In this document: in pieces, positions 1 through 27,343 of the stretch | Layout of the letters: each line of letters opens with the position of its first letter | How positions within the stretch are numbered: position 1 is the stretch's first letter | IMG/VR virus record: IMGVR_UViG_2695420565_000003 | DNA from: a virus | Lineage: Duplodnaviria > Heunggongvirae > Uroviricota > Caudoviricetes | DNA length: 27,343 nucleotides | Strand: one strand, 5' to 3' | Made by a program: the position numbers and the translations under genes | Notes under the pieces: generated by a model | Database searches by the model: none | Seen by the model: only the letters and a program-made list of their open reading frames with translations | Told to the model about the DNA's origin: nothing

Positions 1-127
1 CTCCTCCGGCAGAAGCAGAAAAAGCTTATTATGCTTCCATCGGAAACGATGATCTGGCAGCCTGAGTTCACAGATAAAACACTCTCCAGGAAACCCGGGG
101 CGGTTCAAACAGATTAGCTCTCTGGAT

Positions 128-547
128 TTGGCTAAAGAATTTGGAAAGAGACATCAAGATGTTTTGCGTGACGTTAGGTTAGTTTCTAAAAATACAGGAA
201 TTGCTTTTGTTGAATCTGTGTATGTAGATTCCCAAAATCGAAAAAAGTGTCACTATATGCTGTGTGGACAATTAGCAGATGCGATGTATAAACGCTATAA
301 CGGCTTACGTTTTGGTTTATCTACTGCCGAAAAGATTGCTCTTAACACTATAGAACAAGTTTTAGGTATCAACCTGATTCGCCAGTGTCGGGTGTTAAAC
401 TATCGAATTGATGGTTATGATCCGGTTAATAATATAGCTTATGAAATTGATGAACCAGAACACCAGTACAAGAAAGAGCAAGACGAGATCCGTCAACGAA
501 GAATTGAAAATGAGTTAGGATGCAAGTTTGTCCGAATCAAAGTATGA
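128..547 (+). CDS. Rha-like DNA-binding N-terminus fused to a DUF559/Vsr-like PD-(D/E)xK nuclease-like C-terminus; putative homing-endonuclease-like or regulatory protein, with TTG start or a frameshifted 5' end
   Basis: The N-terminus 'LAKEFGKRHQDVLRDV' matches the Rha-family signature (FGKRHxNVLRDI) as I recall it. The C-terminus 'YRIDGYDPVNNIAYEIDEPEH...DEIRQRRIENELGCKFVRI' resembles the DUF559/Vsr-type endonuclease core. There is no ATG at the 5' end (the track start at 128 is TTG) and the frame is open back to 53. Stop is TGA. Confidence 0.5.
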   Translation: MAKEFGKRHQDVLRDVRLVSKNTGIAFVESVYVDSQNRKKCHYMLCGQLADAMYKRYNGLRFGLSTAEKIALNTIEQVLGINLIRQCRVLNYRIDGYDPVNNIAYEIDEPEHQYKKEQDEIRQRRIENELGCKFVRIKV

Positions 548-551
548 TTTT

Positions 552-580
552 AGCCTCGCCTAGTGCGGGGCTTTTTTGTT
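552..580 (+). terminator. Rho-independent terminator after the 128..547 gene
   Basis: Stem AGCCTCGC / GCGGGGCT (one G-U pair), loop CTAGT, followed by TTTTTTGTTTT. Confidence 0.6.
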
Positions 581-592
581 TTCTATAGGCAT

Positions 593-617
593 AAAAAAAG
601 CCACTCCGAAGAGTGGC
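593..617 (-). terminator. Rho-independent terminator for the minus-strand genes, back-to-back with the + strand terminator
   Basis: On the minus strand this reads GCCACTC-TTCG-GAGTGGC followed by TTTTTTT (the complement of the A-run at 593-599). Confidence 0.6.
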
Positions 618-632
618 AAAGAGAATCAAAAC

Positions 633-866
633 TCAAAAACCTGTTGCTTCTACGATCTGACCATCACCGATCTGAACATAGAATTTAATATCTAACTTCT
701 TGATATTTTTATAGAATTGAGCTACCGATATAGCGTGCTCACTAAGAATCTGTTCTTTCGCTTCCTTCCCGCGATCCGCTGTATAGTAAGCGTAGGCAAT
801 ATCAGCCATCTGTTCAGCGTTAAAACGGGCAGGGCGACCGCGAGTAGCTTTAGTAGTCATAGTCAT
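633..866 (-). CDS. Small putative DNA-binding protein (77 aa)
   Basis: Open frame with an AT-hook-like 'TRGRPARF' and a helix-turn-helix-like segment 'LSEHAISVAQFYKNIKK'. TGA stop. Co-directional with the 895..1500 gene. Confidence 0.45.
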   Translation of the reverse strand: MTMTTKATRGRPARFNAEQMADIAYAYYTADRGKEAKEQILSEHAISVAQFYKNIKKLDIKFYVQIGDGQIVEATGF

Positions 867-894
867 TTCTCCAAATTAAAGTGAATGTTCACCT

Positions 895-1500
895 TTATTT
901 AGAGGACTTACATTTTATCGGAAAAAGTTCTCCATCGTCAACCGACATAAAGAACTCTGCCTTAATCCCGTACTTCTTCAACCGTGAATAGTATGTACCC
1001 CGACTTATATCAACCTTGCGCAGCACTTCGAAGAACTCTTTAGGATTCCTGTAATAGTGGCTATATCGCACGTTAGCGAGTTCTACAAACAATTCCCTTG
1101 TATCACCATAGCCTTTCTTAAAAGCCACGTTACGATAGCGTGTAATGGCATGATTCAATCTCTTCTGTTTAAGCACTTCCCTAATCGGTGTCCACTGCAA
1201 CCGATAGATTGGACCGTCATCCACTCGATAGAATCGCTTAATGTCAAAATCAAACCATTCACGAACTCTATTAAACTCTGTCTGTGATGTTCGGTGCTTC
1301 TTAAAGAAGTTGTGAATATCGGTATACCCATGATCGCGATACAACTCGATTAAAATCTGTTTAGCTTCCTCGCGACTAAAGCCGGATGTTGTGTAATCAG
1401 TCTTCTTGTGATGGTGCTTAACTGGCAAACGATATTCATGATCGGTACAACAAGAAAAGGCTAATTCTAATACATCTCTTTGTTGCTGATTAATTAGCAT
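895..1500 (-). CDS. Hypothetical protein (201 aa) with a C-terminal HTH-like segment
   Basis: Long open frame divergent from TerL. '[19 protein letters not shown]' resembles a helix-turn-helix. Function unknown. Confidence 0.5.
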
Positions 1501-1587
1501 ACAACCCCCTTAAATCTTAATACCCGTATTTATCAAAATATCAACAATTTAATAAATACCTTCATATTTCGTAATGAGGGTAATTAC

Positions 1588-3492
1588 ATGAAACTGATTT
1601 CAAATAAGGCAAAATTAAAAAAGATTCTTAAAAATGCCGCAAAATATATCACTCCACCGCCTAAGCTCCTTCCTTCTGAATGGTGCGAAGCTAATATGGT
1701 GCTGGTAGATGGTCCTCAAGCTGGGGATAAAGTTAAATTACTGTCATTCCAGAAAGGCATGATTGATGCTCCTTTCCTTGAGAACAAGAAAAAGTATGTT
1801 CTGATGACCAGTGCGCAGATCGGAAAGACTACCATCCTGAACGGCATCCTGTTTAACCAGATGGCTAACGATCCATGCAATATGATTATCGGACAATCAA
1901 CCGCTAAAGAAATGTCTCAATATCTCGCGGGTAAGATCCGACCGTCTATCGAAGCATGTGATGCATTAAAAGACGTGGTTACAGACAAGAATGATCGCAA
2001 TGCGGTTAACAACAATAACCAGCTACAGCTAAAAACGAATCACTTCCTGTACATGGTATCGCTTACCAGTCCATCAACCCTACGTGGTAAGACCGCAAAG
2101 GTTGGGTTGCTTGACGAAATCGATGCTGCTACAGCCTCAGAAGAAGGTGATCCGGTGGCACTGGCTGCTAACCGTTTAACTACCTTTGGCGATGAAGGCC
2201 GATTAGTCGTATCCAGTACCCCGACCAGTAAGCTGGGAAGCATTAACCAGCAATGGTTATCAAGCGACATGCGTATGTTTTTTGTTCCGTGTCCGCATTG
2301 CGGGGAACACCAGGTGATCGAGTGGGAAAACGTTCAATTTGAATGGCGTAACATTGATGGTAAGAACTTACCCGATCCTGATACCGCTCGTTATATTTGC
2401 CCCCACTGTAAGAACGCATGGACAGAAGGGGAACGAATCAGGGCAGTAGCACAAGGCGAGTGGAGAGCAACCCGTGAAAGTGAAGTAGCCGGATTCTGGA
2501 TCAGTCGTCTGTATTCACCTTTCAGCACGATTCGCGCTTGTGTGGTTGATTTTAGTCATGCGTGGCAATCCTTTGATTTACAATCCTTTTTTAACACCGT
2601 GTTAGGCAAGGTATACGACGATCAGGACACGGCAGTAGAAGCAAATGAACTGGAACAACTCAAAACAGATGTTTCTATCGAGAATATCCCTGATGACGTG
2701 ATTTTCTTGTGTGCGGGTACTGACCAGCAATTAGATCGCGCAGAAACTACAATCATGGGCGTGGCAAAGGATAAGATTTATATTCTGGATCATCGCAGCT
2801 TTTACGATCATAACTGTGAACGATATGAATCCCCTGTATGGGATAGATTAATCAACTTCCATAAAACCAAATTTACTACTGTATCGGGTGATCGTGTTCC
2901 TATGCTCGCCAGCTTCCTTGATACATCGAACGGTCGATTCACTCAAGCTGGATACCGTATTTGCGGCAAGTGGAAGAACTTACACGCTATCAAAGGTAGT
3001 TCTGCTGGTAACGCTCCGATCATTCCGGTTAAACCTACCCGCACAGGTGGTCATGAATTGCTTATGTTGGGTGTTAATGTGGGTAAAACTGCATTTCGTG
3101 AAATGTTGGCTAGGAACCTGAAAGATAATCCTCATATTGGCTTAGAAATATCAGACACCGTTCCTGATGATTATCTCGATCAGCTTTTAAGTGAATCTGT
3201 CAAGCGTACTACTACTGGCGTGAGATGGGTAAAGAACCCAGGCGTTAGGAACGAGGCGCTCGACTGCGCCGTGTATGCTACAGCGGCTTCTCGCTACGTC
3301 CTTTCAAAAATGTCATGGGAAAAACTCGAAGCCATCAAAGATAGTTTGAACCGTGAACCAGAAGAATCCGTAGAAGCTCCTAAATCGCAATCTAACGAGC
3401 AAATCGAAGAAACTAAGCCAATCACACGACCACAACGTAAAAACATCGCCAGACGCCCAAATAGAGGCCGTAGCTGGGTAACATCGTTCTAA
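1588..3492 (+). CDS. terL: Terminase large subunit, lambda gpA family
   Basis: 634 aa. The N-terminus 'EWCEANMVL...[10 protein letters not shown]...[11 protein letters not shown]' parallels lambda gpA as I recall it. Also present are the 'CPHCGEHQ' and '[10 protein letters not shown]' zinc-ribbon-like motifs, '[17 protein letters not shown]' and C-terminal '[16 protein letters not shown]' (lambda: RNEALDCFVYALAALR). RBS GAGGG upstream. Confidence 0.92.
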
Positions 3493-3564: not shown

Positions 3565-4062
3565 ATGAGTTTAGAACTAATTCCCTTAGTAATTCGTAAA
3601 GGCGAAAAAATCACGCTGGCGAATGAAGAGGGTGTAACAATTCAGGTAGGAAATAGTAATAAAGGTATCATTTATCAGGTTGATGATACTCCGGCTAATC
3701 ACGAGATTAAAACGTTAGACTTTCCAGAAGGTAAATATACCATCTTAGCAACTTTTGACGATGAACTGGTATCAATGCAGGAATTAACTGTTTTGCCAGT
3801 ATTCGCCAAACAATCCAAAAAAGAATATCTGCGGGAAACTATCGCCTTAATCGAGCAAGTTATTTTCGCCCGTTTATCTGGGGACGAAGCCGCATTATCA
3901 GCAATGACAATAAAAGGGAACTCATTCGCTTATGAGTCATTGGGTGTTCTCCAGCAATTGAAGACTGATTATGAACGTCAGTTATCTAAATTAATTCAAG
4001 CCGAACGACGTAAACAGGGAATTAGCCCGATTAAAAATATCAAATTACGTCTTACGCGATAA
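3565..4062 (+). CDS. Hypothetical head-module protein (165 aa) between terminase and portal
   Basis: ORF preceded by the conserved AAGGGGTAAT-type RBS. No recognisable motif. Its position corresponds to lambda gpW but it is larger. Confidence 0.55.
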   Translation: MSLELIPLVIRKGEKITLANEEGVTIQVGNSNKGIIYQVDDTPANHEIKTLDFPEGKYTILATFDDELVSMQELTVLPVFAKQSKKEYLRETIALIEQVIFARLSGDEAALSAMTIKGNSFAYESLGVLQQLKTDYERQLSKLIQAERRKQGISPIKNIKLRLTR

Positions 4063-4072
4063 GGGGTAAATC

Positions 4073-5584
4073 ATGTTTAATCTTTTTCGACGCAAAAAGG
4101 CGGTAGAAACTCCAGTTAAAACTAATCACCGCCAGCAACAACCAAAAATTTTCATCGATAAGCAAGTAGAAAAATTCCAGAAAGACCTATCTCAACGGAG
4201 TTTAGGACTGGTTGGTGATCGTATTGATGGATCACTTCAACAAGACACCATTACAGGAACCTTCAATAAGGCTCTCAAATCGAACGGTAAGCGCCTTTAT
4301 GATCAGGGTCGTACTCTGGCCTTAAACACTTCCGTAGGCAGTCGCTACACGCAATACATCACCGATATGGTGGTAGGTACTGGCCTAGATCCGAAGCCGT
4401 CAATCGTTAAATCGAATGGCAAACTTGATAGCGCACTGAATAAGCAGATCGAAAATGCTTTCTGGAAGTGGGCGCAGAATGCTAAACGATTCTCTCGTAA
4501 CGGTCGCTTTAACTTCCGTGAATTGCTGGTAATGGCTGAACGTGAGCGCGTTATGGGTGGTGAGTGCTTCATCGTTTTAACCAAAGAAAACAATGAGTTA
4601 AATGTTTCTATCCTGTCTGCTGATAAGTGCGACTGGTCGCTAAACCGTGAAATAAGCAAAGAGCGTGCGATATATCAAGGTGTGGAGTATGACGTAGAGA
4701 CGATGAAGCCCGTAGCATACTGGTTTCGTAAAATCAACCTACTGACTCAGACCTACACTGGTGATAACTATCGCGTCGATGCTTCGCAAGTATGCCATTA
4801 TTATCAACCACTTACAGCCGAATCCCTGCGTGGTGTGACTGACTTCCTGCCAGTGATCAAGGATATCGCACATCAAGACGCATTCCGCGAAACTGCGATC
4901 GTCCAGAAACGTATTGCAGCTAGCTCTATGGGCTTTATCGAACGTCCGAAAGATTCTGGTGACGATTTTGATACTGGTGAAGATGATGAACAATATCAAG
5001 CGCCGGAAGTAGTACAGGATTTTGCACCGGGTACTATTCAGGAATTACCGGAAGGGGCAACGATCAAGAGCATCCAGGCGACGCAAAGCGGTGATGACTT
5101 CAATTCGTTCAATGATGCGATGTTTACTAGCGTATCAATGGGCTTAGGCGTGTTCAAACAGGGCTTAACGGGAGATTGTTCACAGATCAACTACTCAGCC
5201 GCACGTTTTGGTGAACTACTTCAACGTAACCGCGTTAAAGCACTTCAAAACAAATTGATTGAAACAGTGGTGTTGCCAATTTTCGAAGCATATCTACGCC
5301 ATTATTCCGCGCGTGGTATGGTTCCGATTCGTATTACTGCAATTCCGCATATTATCGATAATACAACTATTATTCGTCCGCGTTTTGAGTCCGTCGATGT
5401 TATTAAAGATGTGAACGCTGATATTGCTTTAATTGATAAGGGACTTAAATCACGTACTGCCGTTATATTAGAACGTGGTGATGATCCTGAAAAAGTATTC
5501 TCAGAGATTCAAGCCGAAAAGAGCGCACTAAATATTATCGTTGATGGTGAGGGTGAAGAAAAAAATTCCCCAGCCGATCCCTAA
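4073..5584 (+). CDS. Portal protein
   Basis: 503-aa ORF immediately downstream of TerL and upstream of the protease/capsid gene. Size and position are typical of portals. RBS AAGGGGTAAAT. Assigned mainly on synteny. Confidence 0.75.
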   Translation: MFNLFRRKKAVETPVKTNHRQQQPKIFIDKQVEKFQKDLSQRSLGLVGDRIDGSLQQDTITGTFNKALKSNGKRLYDQGRTLALNTSVGSRYTQYITDMVVGTGLDPKPSIVKSNGKLDSALNKQIENAFWKWAQNAKRFSRNGRFNFRELLVMAERERVMGGECFIVLTKENNELNVSILSADKCDWSLNREISKERAIYQGVEYDVETMKPVAYWFRKINLLTQTYTGDNYRVDASQVCHYYQPLTAESLRGVTDFLPVIKDIAHQDAFRETAIVQKRIAASSMGFIERPKDSGDDFDTGEDDEQYQAPEVVQDFAPGTIQELPEGATIKSIQATQSGDDFNSFNDAMFTSVSMGLGVFKQGLTGDCSQINYSAARFGELLQRNRVKALQNKLIETVVLPIFEAYLRHYSARGMVPIRITAIPHIIDNTTIIRPRFESVDVIKDVNADIALIDKGLKSRTAVILERGDDPEKVFSEIQAEKSALNIIVDGEGEEKNSPADP

Positions 5585-25325: not shown

Positions 25326-25362
25326 TAGTAGTGAATATTATTTTATTGAGGATTCACTACTA
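25326..25362 (+). promoter_or_regulatory. Perfect 11-bp inverted repeat spanning the RBS and start codon of the 25362 gene
   Basis: TAGTAGTGAAT-(15 nt, containing TGAGG)-ATTCACTACTA. The right arm ends at the A of the ATG. Confidence 0.5.
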
Positions 25363-26360
25363 TGAATAATACTTTAGCAAAGGATATCGAATTTACCGCA
25401 AAAAGCAAACGTGCGACCCCTCCGGTCGAATATGAAACCAGAATCATTAAAGTTTGTCAAGCGCATGGATGGTTATACAGTGGTTTTGTGCTTCCTGTAA
25501 AGAAACCATTCCAGAACACCAAAGTTTGCATAGAAGTTAACGGAAAGGTTAAAACGCCATGTATTAGTCATGTTCTAACTGGTCAGTTTACTGGCAAAGA
25601 TAGAGTATCACCGCCTAAGAAGAAGTTTAGATTTACCGAAGAAGAACACTTAGAAAACGCTCGCAAGTTCTACAAGCCGATAGGGTGGGATGTGTTAGGT
25701 CTGGCTGAACCTTATCAGGGTGTTGACACTAAACTAATTCTTCGTTGTAAGTGCCACGGAAAGATTCACAAGAAAGGTGATTTACACAATAACCGCAGAC
25801 AAGGCGGGTTAACATGCCCTTTGGTTAGGGGGGTACTTAAATCAATTCAGAATGGTAGAAAACAGGTTATCAGAAACAAGTTTGCACAGCGCCCTATGCA
25901 CTTTTATCTAATTCGTGTTGGCGAGAAGTTTTTCAAATATGGAATTACCACTCGCAAAGATCCGATGCAACGGGTAAGAGAACACCAGAAGCACACCAGC
26001 GAGAAAATCACCTTTGAATGCTCACATTTGTTTAACATTGGATGGAAAGCTGGTGATTTAGAAATGGGGATTAAAAAGAATATTCAGGGCAAGAAAATCC
26101 CACGTAAGGTAATGAATAGCGGATTCACAGAAACGCTACCGATTAGCAAGCTGAAAGATGTTAAATCATTCATCAATGAATACATCCACACCAACCCATC
26201 TAAGCCAATGTATTTTGATGATACCAACGCAATCAATCTGAACAACTACATTAGTGATGAAGACATAGAACGAGATTTATCGCAGTGGATGAATGCACCG
26301 TTAGCTGATTTAATACCGGAAGACTTAGAACTCGATTTAAGCCCATTAGAGACACTCTAA
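25362..26360 (+). CDS. T5orf172 / GIY-YIG-like domain protein with an N-terminal Cys/His-rich region
   Basis: 'FYLIRVGEKFFKYGITTRKDPMQRVREHQ' has GIY-(x10)-YIG spacing followed by Arg residues, and the later 'SGFTETLP' resembles the T5orf172 GxTEWF box. The N-terminal half has 'RCKCHGKIHKKGDLH...CP'. Confidence 0.55.
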   Translation: MNNTLAKDIEFTAKSKRATPPVEYETRIIKVCQAHGWLYSGFVLPVKKPFQNTKVCIEVNGKVKTPCISHVLTGQFTGKDRVSPPKKKFRFTEEEHLENARKFYKPIGWDVLGLAEPYQGVDTKLILRCKCHGKIHKKGDLHNNRRQGGLTCPLVRGVLKSIQNGRKQVIRNKFAQRPMHFYLIRVGEKFFKYGITTRKDPMQRVREHQKHTSEKITFECSHLFNIGWKAGDLEMGIKKNIQGKKIPRKVMNSGFTETLPISKLKDVKSFINEYIHTNPSKPMYFDDTNAINLNNYISDEDIERDLSQWMNAPLADLIPEDLELDLSPLETL

Positions 26361-26433: not shown

Positions 26434-27343
26434 TTAAATTCCAAATTCCTGTAATGGACCTGGTATTTCCTCTTCTGGCTTCCAGTCTTTATCTGTCAGC
26501 ATGTCTAAACATGGATGCAGAACAAGCCCGTTACTCTCCAGAATCTGCCTATCATTGATAGTTTTCAAATCGACAAAGATTTGTCCTTTCCTCGGTCCTC
26601 TTGAATTTTCTATTACAACTCTCTGGGTCTTGCCATCAATGTATTCCAATACAAACAAGTTTTTGTATTTGTCAATCCTGCTACACCCGATCCGTTTTAG
26701 AGCTTGCTTAATCTTAAACCGGACCTTAATGCGATCCTCGTTATAAACATCTTCTAAATCAAATTCTGCGAGCTTCTCCCAGCCTTGAGAGTCCACAGAA
26801 TACATTTCCTCTTCTGCCATCTTAATCTGATTGTAGAGTGTTTCACGCTCGCTATTGAGGGTAGTAATCTGATCGGCTAGCTCCTTCGTTGCTCCTGTCA
26901 TAGCAGAAAGGGCAATCAGGTTATCAATCTTGCGTGATATTTCATCAACCTGTACTTTCAACGCCGGAACCGGATTAGCCTTGTCCTCAGCAACCCAGAT
27001 TTTATCAGCCAGCAATTGCAATACAGCTTTCTCTAATTGATCACCTCGAAAACTCCAGTTTGTATGCACACATGCAATACGACTAGAGCGCATTGCATCG
27101 CATGAATAACGATATTGGTTAGGCCGTTTGTTAGTTCCTTTCACCTTAACCATAGCGGAACCGCAATGTTCACATTTCAGCAGATTAACACCACTAAGCA
27201 GGGGGATCGGTTTAGCTTCTTCTTTGTCTCCATAGTTACATGCTCTAACACCAATTGAACCGCCCCGGGAATCCTGGAGACTAAACTTCCTGAGAAAGAG
27301 GTAAACAGGATGACTAAAAATACTCGTTTTTCCCCTGAAGTCC
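26434..27343 (-). CDS. Large serine recombinase (integrase-type), C-terminal ~302 aa; the 5' part lies beyond the window edge
   Basis: The frame is open to the window edge upstream of the track start. It contains the zinc-ribbon signature 'LLSGVNLLKCEHCGSAMVKVKG...YRYSCDAMRSSRIAC', followed by a coiled-coil segment. TAA stop at 26434. Confidence 0.8.
   Translation of the reverse strand, partial: DFRGKTSIFSHPVYLFLRKFSLQDSRGGSIGVRACNYGDKEEAKPIPLLSGVNLLKCEHCGSAMVKVKGTNKRPNQYRYSCDAMRSSRIACVHTNWSFRGDQLEKAVLQLLADKIWVAEDKANPVPALKVQVDEISRKIDNLIALSAMTGATKELADQITTLNSERETLYNQIKMAEEEMYSVDSQGWEKLAEFDLEDVYNEDRIKVRFKIKQALKRIGCSRIDKYKNLFVLEYIDGKTQRVVIENSRGPRKGQIFVDLKTINDRQILESNGLVLHPCLDMLTDKDWKPEEEIPGPLQEFGI

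Follow-up and report, generated by a model that had tools for sequence, protein, structure and literature searches.

An apparent frameshift at the edge of an Escherichia coli prophage contig is almost certainly an IS629 junction within a gene for a putative Rha/Vsr-like nuclease

The window analysed here, a continuous stretch of 27,343 nucleotides, is late-region DNA of an E. coli prophage, with genes for a lambda-type terminase gpA, a portal protein, a protease-capsid fusion and a tail tube protein. Further genes specify a J-like tip protein, an endolysin and tail fibre proteins, namely a protein of 1204 aa and a Gp38-like adhesin. Related prophages are integrated beside genes that we take to be ydcP-yncJ-hicAB, the names being drawn from Pfam families and from knowledge of K-12. 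Our analysis centers on the left edge of the window, where the original prediction had described an open reading frame without an ATG, preceded by a second frame that seemed to belong to it. Both frames are present as described: a frame-2 ORF of 139 aa runs from TTG at 128 to TGA at 545-547, and a frame-1 ORF begins with an ATG at 31 or 49 and stops at TAG 115-117. The features of this region are the following.

1..107, + strand: right (3') end of IS629 (IS3 family), 107/107 identical to the IS629 of VT1-Sakai; the remainder of the element lies upstream of the window
1..65, + strand: tail of the IS629 transposase OrfB, 21 codons and a stop, in frame 3 (...PPAEAEKAYYASIGNDDLAA, TGA at 63-65)
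31..117, + strand: frame-1 ORF, apparently spurious (MLPSETMIWQPEFTDKTLSRKPGAVQTD and stop; ATG at 31 or 49, TAG at 115-117)
83..107, + strand: right terminal inverted repeat of IS629, 25 bp (reverse complement TGAACCGCCCCGGGTTTCCTGGAGA; annotated at 2083-2107 of the VT1-Sakai record, L001)
108..547, + strand: 3' fragment of a Rha-winged-helix/Vsr-like nuclease gene (last 2 nt of codon 11, codons 12-156, TGA at 545-547)
113..298, + strand: Rha-type winged-helix DNA-binding domain, residues 13-74 of the intact protein (Pfam, AlphaFold, Foldseek and PHROG)
323..541, + strand: Vsr/DUF559-like nuclease domain (PD-(D/E)xK superfamily), residues 83-155
329-331, 410-412, 449-451, 461-463 and 482-484, + strand: putative active-site residues E85, D112, D125, H129 and D136, respectively
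552..582, + strand: predicted intrinsic terminator 3' of the nuclease gene (AGCCTCGCCTAGTGCGGGGCT followed by a T-run; terminator scan)
600..617, - strand: predicted terminator hairpin of the convergent minus-strand genes at 633-866 and 895-1500 (terminator scan)

The first 107 bases of the window are the end of an insertion sequence. The IS629 copy of VT1-Sakai is annotated at positions 798-2107 of L001 (1310 bp), and window positions 1-107 match its positions 2001-2107 with zero mismatches. In a three-way alignment (A1), the window tracks IS629 as far as ...GGTTCA at position 107, and the identity breaks off exactly at the terminal ...TTCA of the element, whose last two bases are CA. The 25-bp terminal inverted repeat of the 5'-TG...CA-3' type is found as an exact minus-strand match at 83-107. 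Frame 3 reads ...AYYASIGNDDLAA and closes at 63-65, which coincides with the end of the annotated transposase CDS (position 2065 of L001 is position 65 of the window); the OrfB frame thus ends shortly 5' of the right inverted repeat, as membership in IS629 requires. Of the 177 phage records that a megablast search with window positions 1-1600 retrieved, nearly all match just bases 1 to ~108 at 99-100% identity, and the features underlying these matches are annotated as IS629, transposase or mobile element. At ≥99% identity, this 107-nt end recurs in 167 phage records whose contexts are unrelated. Approximately 75% of complete E. coli genomes match it, in keeping with a common insertion sequence. 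Of the IS629 copies of O157 genomes, 62% are located in prophages (PMC3271280).

The sequence to the right of position 107 has a different origin. Positions 108-1600 are identical (1493/1493) to three prophage loci, L010, L012 and L013, that were retrieved by looking up the terminase of the window (100% identical) and that carry an intact gene of 156 codons. In these E. coli prophages the gene possesses its own ribosome-binding site (Shine-Dalgarno AAGGGG) and an ATG, and starts MGNAALQLEKEQISSLD. Its encoded N-terminus, MGNAALQLEKEQ, is unrelated to the frame-1 peptide MLPSETMIWQPEFTDKTLSRKPGAVQTD of the window. The DNA of the three loci reads ...TTTTAAGGGGTACTTT ATG GGA AAT GCT GCA TTA CAA TTA GAA AAA G/AA CAG ATT AGC..., or ...AAGGGGtactttATGGGAAATGCTGCATTACAATTAGAAAAAG/AACAGATT... 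around the junction, where the slash marks the point at which the window switches to IS629. The switch falls after coding nucleotide 31, within codon 11, and the three-way alignment places it at the same base. When the frame-2 product, taken from SSLD onward, was used as a protein query, 125 homologues were found; the closest, among them P0001 (99% identical to the window protein), are 156 aa long and start with MGNAALQLEKEQISSLDLAKEFGKRH. All of these homologues are single ORFs and the two-frame arrangement was observed in 0 of the 125. The fragment at 108-547 is 100% identical to the alleles of L010, L012 and L013 and 99% identical to P0001.

Since bases 1-107 are IS629 and the sequence from 108 onward is a prophage in which the gene is intact, IS629 lies within codon 11. 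These alignments indicate that IS629 almost certainly interrupts codon 11 of a prophage gene of 156 codons and that what appeared to be a frameshift would be the IS629 junction itself. The frame-1 ORF, 87% of which (31-107) is located inside IS629, is best read from the sequence as the end of the element continued through the junction to the first stop codon, and thus as lying outside the nuclease gene. The likeness of its peptide to a Rha N-terminus is a matter of chance. The original prediction held that frame 1 would join naturally to frame 2 if one nucleotide were removed; instead, the homology breaks at 107/108 and no base is missing or supernumerary. Its suggestion of a sequencing error or a recoding site falls as well, given that the upstream frame is the IS629 end and that the intact alleles form a single ORF with another N-terminus.

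We propose that IS629 would have transposed into codon 11, such that the window begins inside the element, and that the first 31-34 nt of the CDS, the Shine-Dalgarno sequence and the promoter would be located on the far side of the 1.3-kb IS629, outside the window. IS629 generates target duplications of 3-4 bp (PMC3271280). The duplication predicted here would be AAC(A), and the sequence on the far side is expected to read ...ATGGGAAATGCTGCATTACAATTAGAAAAAGAAC(A) followed by TGAACCGCCCC. A search for the displaced 5' end of the gene across the whole window (34-nt probe, up to 3 mismatches) returned no match, as did a search for the predicted left junction in GTDB (one genome per species) and a search for the right junction in GTDB (one genome per species) and the JGI metagenomes. 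The insertion may reflect simple transposition or, alternatively, an IS629-mediated event (deletion or rearrangement) by which the upstream part of the gene was lost; the two are indistinguishable because the left junction, the duplication and the 5' fragment lie outside the window and are absent from the scanned collections. The insertion of IS629 into a prophage gene is in itself an ordinary, routine event. Indeed, this insertion shares with the IS629 insertions of other E. coli prophages the terminal 107 nt, the 25-bp repeat, the OrfB C-terminus and the junction at the exact end of the element, and IS629 is known to reside mostly in prophages and to inactivate genes. In contrast, the target, codon 11 of a Rha-Vsr nuclease gene, was matched in none of the searched collections.

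The opposite end of the window also carries IS629-like sequence. A second copy in the same orientation occupies positions 27256-27343 and comprises the left inverted repeat together with the beginning of orfA (85 of 88 positions identical). It truncates a minus-strand gene for a large serine recombinase, whose ORF is open up to the junction, and this right-hand junction is likewise positioned at the exact terminus of the element. The window is most likely a prophage segment bounded by two IS629 copies, the contig having broken at the repeat. We rejected the possibility that the window is circular through a single IS629: the sequence to the left of the right-hand copy is the recombinase gene and not the 5' fragment of the nuclease gene, and the flanks (AAC vs AAT) also exclude this arrangement.

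The gene interrupted by IS629 encodes a protein with two recognizable domains. The Phage_pRha profile (PF09669) is matched over positions 1-60 of 91, with scores of 30.2 bits for P0001, 36.1 for P0002 and 34.6 for P0009, all above the gathering cut-off of 29.9. The 139-aa ORF starting at TTG scored 25.3 bits (E 2e-5), under this cut-off. The N-termini of Ant/Rha families were matched among PHROGs, and the NCBIfam model of the Rha N-domain (TIGR02681) gave a sub-threshold score of 31 bits for a cut-off of 45.95. A model built with AlphaFold from 58 homologues (mean pLDDT of 84) presents a winged-helix-like N-domain and an alpha/beta C-domain, with pLDDT ≥90 across most of residues 11-70 and a disordered stretch at residues 1-9. 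Foldseek comparisons revealed a resemblance of the N-domain to winged-helix regulators of the MarR type, and comparison of the predicted C-domain identified a Vsr-like alpha/beta nuclease fold. The DUF559 profile (PF04480) scored 17.4-18.0 bits (E ~3-4e-3) for the window protein and 17.8 for P0001, below the gathering cut-off of 20.6, and exceeded this cut-off in the close homologues P0002 (23.8), P0009 (23.5) and P0090 (32.1). The MTES_1575 profile matched the window protein with an E-value of ~3-5e-3, below its curated cut-off. Searches of the PDB by sequence, with the family profile or with the nuclease domain alone, yielded nothing useful.

The original prediction had attributed Rha and DUF559/Vsr signatures to the ORF. 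Both are detectable, the DUF559 match being sub-cut-off in this exact sequence and above the cut-off in P0002 and P0009, and the combination of a Rha-type N-domain with a Vsr/DUF559-like core in ~150 aa is supported. An HMM search of the joined translation, proposed as a check, returned the Rha domain (E 6e-7); the match starts at residue 29 (SSLD...), past the junction, so that the upstream peptide adds nothing, and DUF559 stays below its cut-off.

Residues E85, E93, D112, E123, D125, E126, H129, D136 and R139 are invariant in the 58 homologues. The EDxHD homing family, with I-Bth0305I as its prototype, is defined by residues equivalent to the E, D, H and D of Vsr, which in I-Bth0305I are E170, D196, H213 and D222 (Taylor et al., PMC3239194). 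The spacing of 17 residues between D112 and H129 is the same as the spacing between D196 and H213 of I-Bth0305I (PMC3239194). Based on this spacing, on the invariance and on the predicted fold, E85, D112, D125, H129 and D136 may correspond to the active site of Vsr and I-Bth0305I. The N-terminal Rha-type winged helix of the intact protein would be expected to bind DNA, and its C-terminal Vsr-like domain to cut DNA by means of a metal-dependent E...D...H...D active site as in those two enzymes. Relatives display the same nuclease core fused to a module of the Rha, Bro-N, AntA or KilA-N kind. Mean identity across eight orthologues of 156 aa is 60% in the N-domain and 93% in the nuclease domain. 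This difference fits a target specificity that may shift on a fixed catalytic module. Clustered at 50% identity, the family comprises 77 clusters with E≤1e-30 and 1,637 with E≤1e-10. Our search of the literature found neither a characterised Rha+DUF559 protein nor a cleavage activity, target site or instance of homing for any family member.

The intact gene is an optional intergenic cassette among prophages with identical terminases. Among the prophages whose terminase is 100% identical to that of the window, the gene is found in four (L010-L013) and is missing in two (L014 and L015). L007 and L008, which are more distant relatives from complete E. coli genomes, likewise lack the nuclease gene. 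As delineated from the alignments, the cassette is ~540 bp long and consists of a small hairpin, the ribosome-binding site and the CDS. It occupies a slot between the stop codon of a gene for a 277-aa Rha regulator and the terminators that precede the convergent genes. Its borders are precise and intergenic, either version of the upstream flank can accompany it, and the alignments distinguish three or more kinds of 'empty' allele. The terminator at 552-582 is kept in the gene-bearing alleles and in the empty allele L008, and the hairpin at 600-617, unchanged in all alleles with or without the gene, forms the right border of the variable slot. A blastn search (distant mode) of positions 108-600 against 5,426 complete E. 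coli genomes returned no match, although the flanking prophage is common in them. We rejected a recent duplication of the N-domain of the neighbouring Rha regulator as the source of the gene (24% identity, E 0.04).

A homologue is also present in a virulent background. The T4-like Krischvirus pEJ01 encodes a protein (P0009) that is 63% identical, with 75% DNA identity over the nuclease half, and its gene is located between gene 32 and frd, adjoining an HNH gene. The gene is absent from all 63 of the other phage records that match this region of pEJ01, several of which present a different annotated 'endonuclease' there. Free-standing homing endonuclease genes are defined operationally as genes that are intergenic between conserved genes and missing from close relatives (PMC2988022), and this definition applies both to the prophage slot and to the gene 32/frd slot of pEJ01. 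We suggest that the gene would spread among related phages as an intergenic cassette of ~540 bp. On balance, we somewhat favour the reading that the intact protein is a homing-endonuclease-like, free-standing, site-specific DNase. The homing-endonuclease-like role put forward by the original prediction accordingly stands as the best-supported reading of these sequences.

In the window, frame 2 is open back to the stop at 50-52 and contains no ATG or GTG from there to 128. The only in-frame candidate starts are ATT 113, CTG 122 and TTG 128, and none of them is preceded by a well-placed Shine-Dalgarno sequence. No sigma-70-like promoter was predicted on the + strand of positions 1-128, including promoters directed outward from the IS629 end. 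All three frames of the + strand are closed within or just past the end of IS629 (stops at 50, 63 and 115 in frames 2, 3 and 1, respectively), and therefore no fusion of OrfB to the nuclease is possible. Because the promoter, the ribosome-binding site and the ATG are all missing, pseudogene status is likely. The remnant at 108-547 presents zero mutations relative to the intact alleles, which indicates that the insertion is recent. Based on these sequence features, the remnant is likely to be a recent pseudogene; the view of the original prediction that the gene might be a frameshifted pseudogene is thus retained for the pseudogene, which would result from the insertion of IS629, and not for the frameshift. 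The remnant encodes the whole conserved core, and its product would probably work if it were expressed. The 139-aa product starting at TTG was absent from public gene calls.

Three other explanations of this region deserve consideration. According to one, a +1 frameshift near position 115, whether a mutation, a sequencing error or programmed recoding, joins 31-117 to frame 2. Frame 1 does stop at TAG 115-117 where frame 2 goes on with SSLDLAKEFGKRH, and its last residues, ...KPGAVQTD, superficially resemble the strand that precedes the Rha helix. However, bases 1-107 are IS629 over 107 of 107 positions and occur in thousands of unrelated contexts, the intact alleles constitute one ORF with its own ribosome-binding site and a different N-terminus, none of the 125 homologues displays the two-frame layout, and the Rha HMM match starts beyond the junction. 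The conserved two-frame arrangement expected of programmed +1 frameshifting of the prfB type is not observed, and GAT-TAG-C offers no re-pairing for a +1 slip, judging from the sequence and from general knowledge of prfB-type sites. The probability that we attach to a frameshift is negligible. An assembly artefact, in which a chimeric IS629-prophage contig end conceals a gene that is intact in the real genome, is only slightly more credible and is very improbable. Both ends of the window do fall inside IS629-type repeats (107 nt on the left and 88 nt on the right), as happens when short-read contigs break at repeats, and the junction sequence was found in no other scanned public assembly. Yet the join coincides with the final base of the IS629 repeat (...TTCA), which transposition predicts and a random chimera would not produce, the right end has the same exact-terminus junction, and a contig that ends shortly into a repeat is the normal signature of a real junction between repeated and unique sequence. 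It is also conceivable that the remnant is functional and that read-through from IS629 with a start at ATT 113 or TTG 128 produces a nuclease of 139-144 aa. Family members of 143-149 aa do start at the codon that matches ATT 113, such as P0009 of pEJ01 (MISSLD...), and many representatives of this length start at profile position 12-13; moreover, residues 1-9 are disordered in the model, the remnant is free of mutations and no + strand terminator was predicted between the OrfB stop and 108. Against this, neither ATG nor GTG is available, ATT very rarely serves as a start codon and the closest G-rich run stops 12 nt before it, and TTG 128 lacks a Shine-Dalgarno sequence and would remove the nearly invariant S15 together with the start of helix 1. 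In addition, no promoter-like site was predicted, and the transcription of IS3-family transposases is normally weak. Overall, a functional remnant appears quite improbable.

The role of the intact protein is open to another interpretation, namely that it is a phage nuclease for defence or exclusion, or else an anti-repressor or Rha-like regulator with an inactive nuclease fold. The source records name it a 'Rha family transcriptional regulator', the gene directly follows that of the 277-aa Rha regulator, and the PHROG matches are to Ant/Rha families. Exclusion genes are often found in moron-type cassettes that have their own terminator, which counts in favour of a defence role, and PADLOC reported a local match of the nuclease core to the model of a methyl-directed restriction enzyme (E 7e-7). 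This match, however, covers 50 of 294 profile positions; as PADLOC gave just this partial match to the nuclease core, we rejected the assignment of the gene to a known defence system. The invariance of the putative catalytic residues across the 58 diverse homologues argues against an inactive fold. Moreover, the N-domain shares only 24% identity with its counterpart in the neighbouring Rha gene, and the presence of a homologue in an intergenic endonuclease hotspot of a virulent T4-like phage better fits a mobile endonuclease. We regard the defence or regulatory interpretation as unlikely. Taken together, it is very likely that IS629 cut the gene and left a recent pseudogene, the intact product of which would be a homing-endonuclease-like DNase that is silenced here.

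The predicted nuclease combines properties of several known systems. It is similar to I-Bth0305I and phage Hef (EDxHD) in its composite E...D...x...H...D motif, to the extent that the residues correspond as proposed above. These enzymes possess NUMOD/HTH repeats, whereas a Rha-type winged helix is found here and Pfam reported no NUMOD. In addition, I-Bth0305I is intron-encoded and its catalytic domain alone spans residues 167-266, whereas the nuclease studied here is a much smaller protein of 156 aa, free-standing in an intergenic slot. The zinc site and the intercalating tryptophans of Vsr are not evident in its sequence. Relative to DUF559/Vsr proteins, the core is fused to a phage DNA-binding domain and its score is sub-cut-off for the exact sequence. 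Relative to Rha (PF09669) and Ant, the match spans the N-terminal 60 residues and takes in the hallmark (S/T)S-x-x-(I/L)A-x-x-F-G-K-x-H, but the usual C-terminal regions are swapped for the nuclease, such that profile positions 1-60 of 91 are present. ICP1 Odn is reportedly a chimeric phage nuclease with a swapped DNA-binding domain, and the protein described here resembles such chimeric nucleases in that one nuclease core is joined to different DNA-binding domains. With the seg and mob genes of T4-like phages, it shares the organization of an intergenic cassette between conserved genes that is present or absent in close relatives (PMC2988022). In contrast, Seg, Mob and Odn are GIY-YIG, HNH or T5orf172 enzymes, and the core of this protein is Vsr-like.

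Our results carry a lesson for annotation: an ORF that lacks an ATG and is preceded by a matching upstream frame at the edge of a contig can be the junction of an insertion sequence, and comparing the contig end with known IS termini settles whether one is dealing with such a junction or with a frameshift. In this prophage, the insertion of IS629 would have silenced a selfish nuclease. The family to which the disrupted gene belongs consists of compact, fairly widespread two-domain nucleases that databases label 'Rha family transcriptional regulator' or 'DUF559'. The best-supported view of the sequences is that this annotated but uncharacterised family behaves like a mobile endonuclease cassette in temperate and T4-like coliphages. 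More tentatively, and with somewhat less confidence than in a homing-endonuclease-like activity as such, we speculate that the Rha-winged-helix/Vsr-like proteins (~145-165 aa) might constitute a family of free-standing homing endonucleases, as yet uncharacterised and akin to the EDxHD enzymes, in which Rha, Bro-N, AntA and KilA-N would serve as interchangeable, fast-evolving specificity domains. Its members might be exchanged between temperate prophages and virulent T4-like coliphages, and the copy described here would only just have been silenced by IS629. If the predicted activity is real, the Vsr-like homing endonuclease lineage would gain a new DNA-binding architecture, and these proteins would represent a source of small, modular, site-specific nucleases.

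Both ends of the window (1-107 and 27256-27343) break off approximately 90-110 nt into copies of IS629, a pattern suggestive of a short-read contig that was interrupted at a repeat. These end copies are flanked by AAC... on the left and by ...AAT on the right; because these flanks do not form a matching duplication, the two copies reflect either insertion at separate sites or a rearrangement. The right-end IS629-like copy lies in the same orientation as the left-end copy and is identical to the annotated IS629 of phage VT1-Sakai at 85 of 88 positions. It cuts off a large serine recombinase gene, which has an ORF of 332 aa on its left:

25362-26360, plus strand: 332-aa ORF, PHROG 681 'endonuclease', with the lysis genes on one side and the recombinase on the other
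26434-27255, minus strand: truncated large serine recombinase gene, open up to the IS629-like junction
27256-27343, plus strand: left end of the second IS629-like element, comprising its left inverted repeat (TGAACCGCCCCGGGAATCCTGGAGA) and the beginning of orfA

The prophage integrase (the large serine recombinase) has probably been inactivated, since its remnant comprises only the zinc ribbon and the C-terminal part and is missing the catalytic N-terminal domain. On sequence similarity, the neighboring 332-aa ORF is a second nuclease-like accessory gene of the same prophage: residues 86-292 match PHROG 681 (E 3e-20), and no Pfam family was detected at E<=0.001.

The Krischvirus (T4-like) phage pEJ01, which carries a homologue of the Rha-Vsr nuclease gene, presents accessory nuclease genes on both sides of gene 32 (L009 coordinates):

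2247-2843: HNH gene, in the gene 59-gene 32 interval
3995-4432: Rha-Vsr gene, in the gene 32-frd interval

In T4, the gene 59/gene 32 position is occupied by segG instead of the HNH gene. The gene 32-frd site contains other 'endonuclease' genes, or nothing, in phages related to pEJ01.

In the prophage, the Rha regulator gene is followed by a variable intergenic slot, which separates it from a convergent gene of 75 aa, and by two conserved genes located between this slot and the terminase gene:

548-632: variable intergenic slot
633-866, minus strand: conserved gene, 77 aa
895-1500, minus strand: conserved gene, 201 aa

Comparison with four related prophage loci devoid of the Rha-Vsr cassette (L007, L008, L014 and L015) revealed at least three different 'empty' alleles of the slot, none of which shares its terminator hairpin with another. 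Adjoining the shared bidirectional terminator in the slot are a 7-bp indel (TCAAAAC) and a change in poly-A length. The 77-aa and 201-aa genes were found in all related prophages, directly upstream of terminase gpA and divergent from it. Their products have no match in Pfam or PHROG, and the region upstream of gpA shows no evident Nu1-like gene for a small terminase.

The prophage has a fibre module, whose 1204-aa gene is located with the head genes on one side and the tail-tube gene on the other:

9453-13067, plus strand: 1204-aa fibre protein with a trimerisation domain of the T4 Gp34 type and, at its C-terminus, an S74 chaperone domain
13773-14279, plus strand: Gp38-N adhesin-like ORF, after the 1204-aa fibre gene

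As judged from locus comparison, this fibre module is exchangeable, because the related prophage locus L010 possesses a different module (818 + 92 + 394 aa) at the equivalent position.
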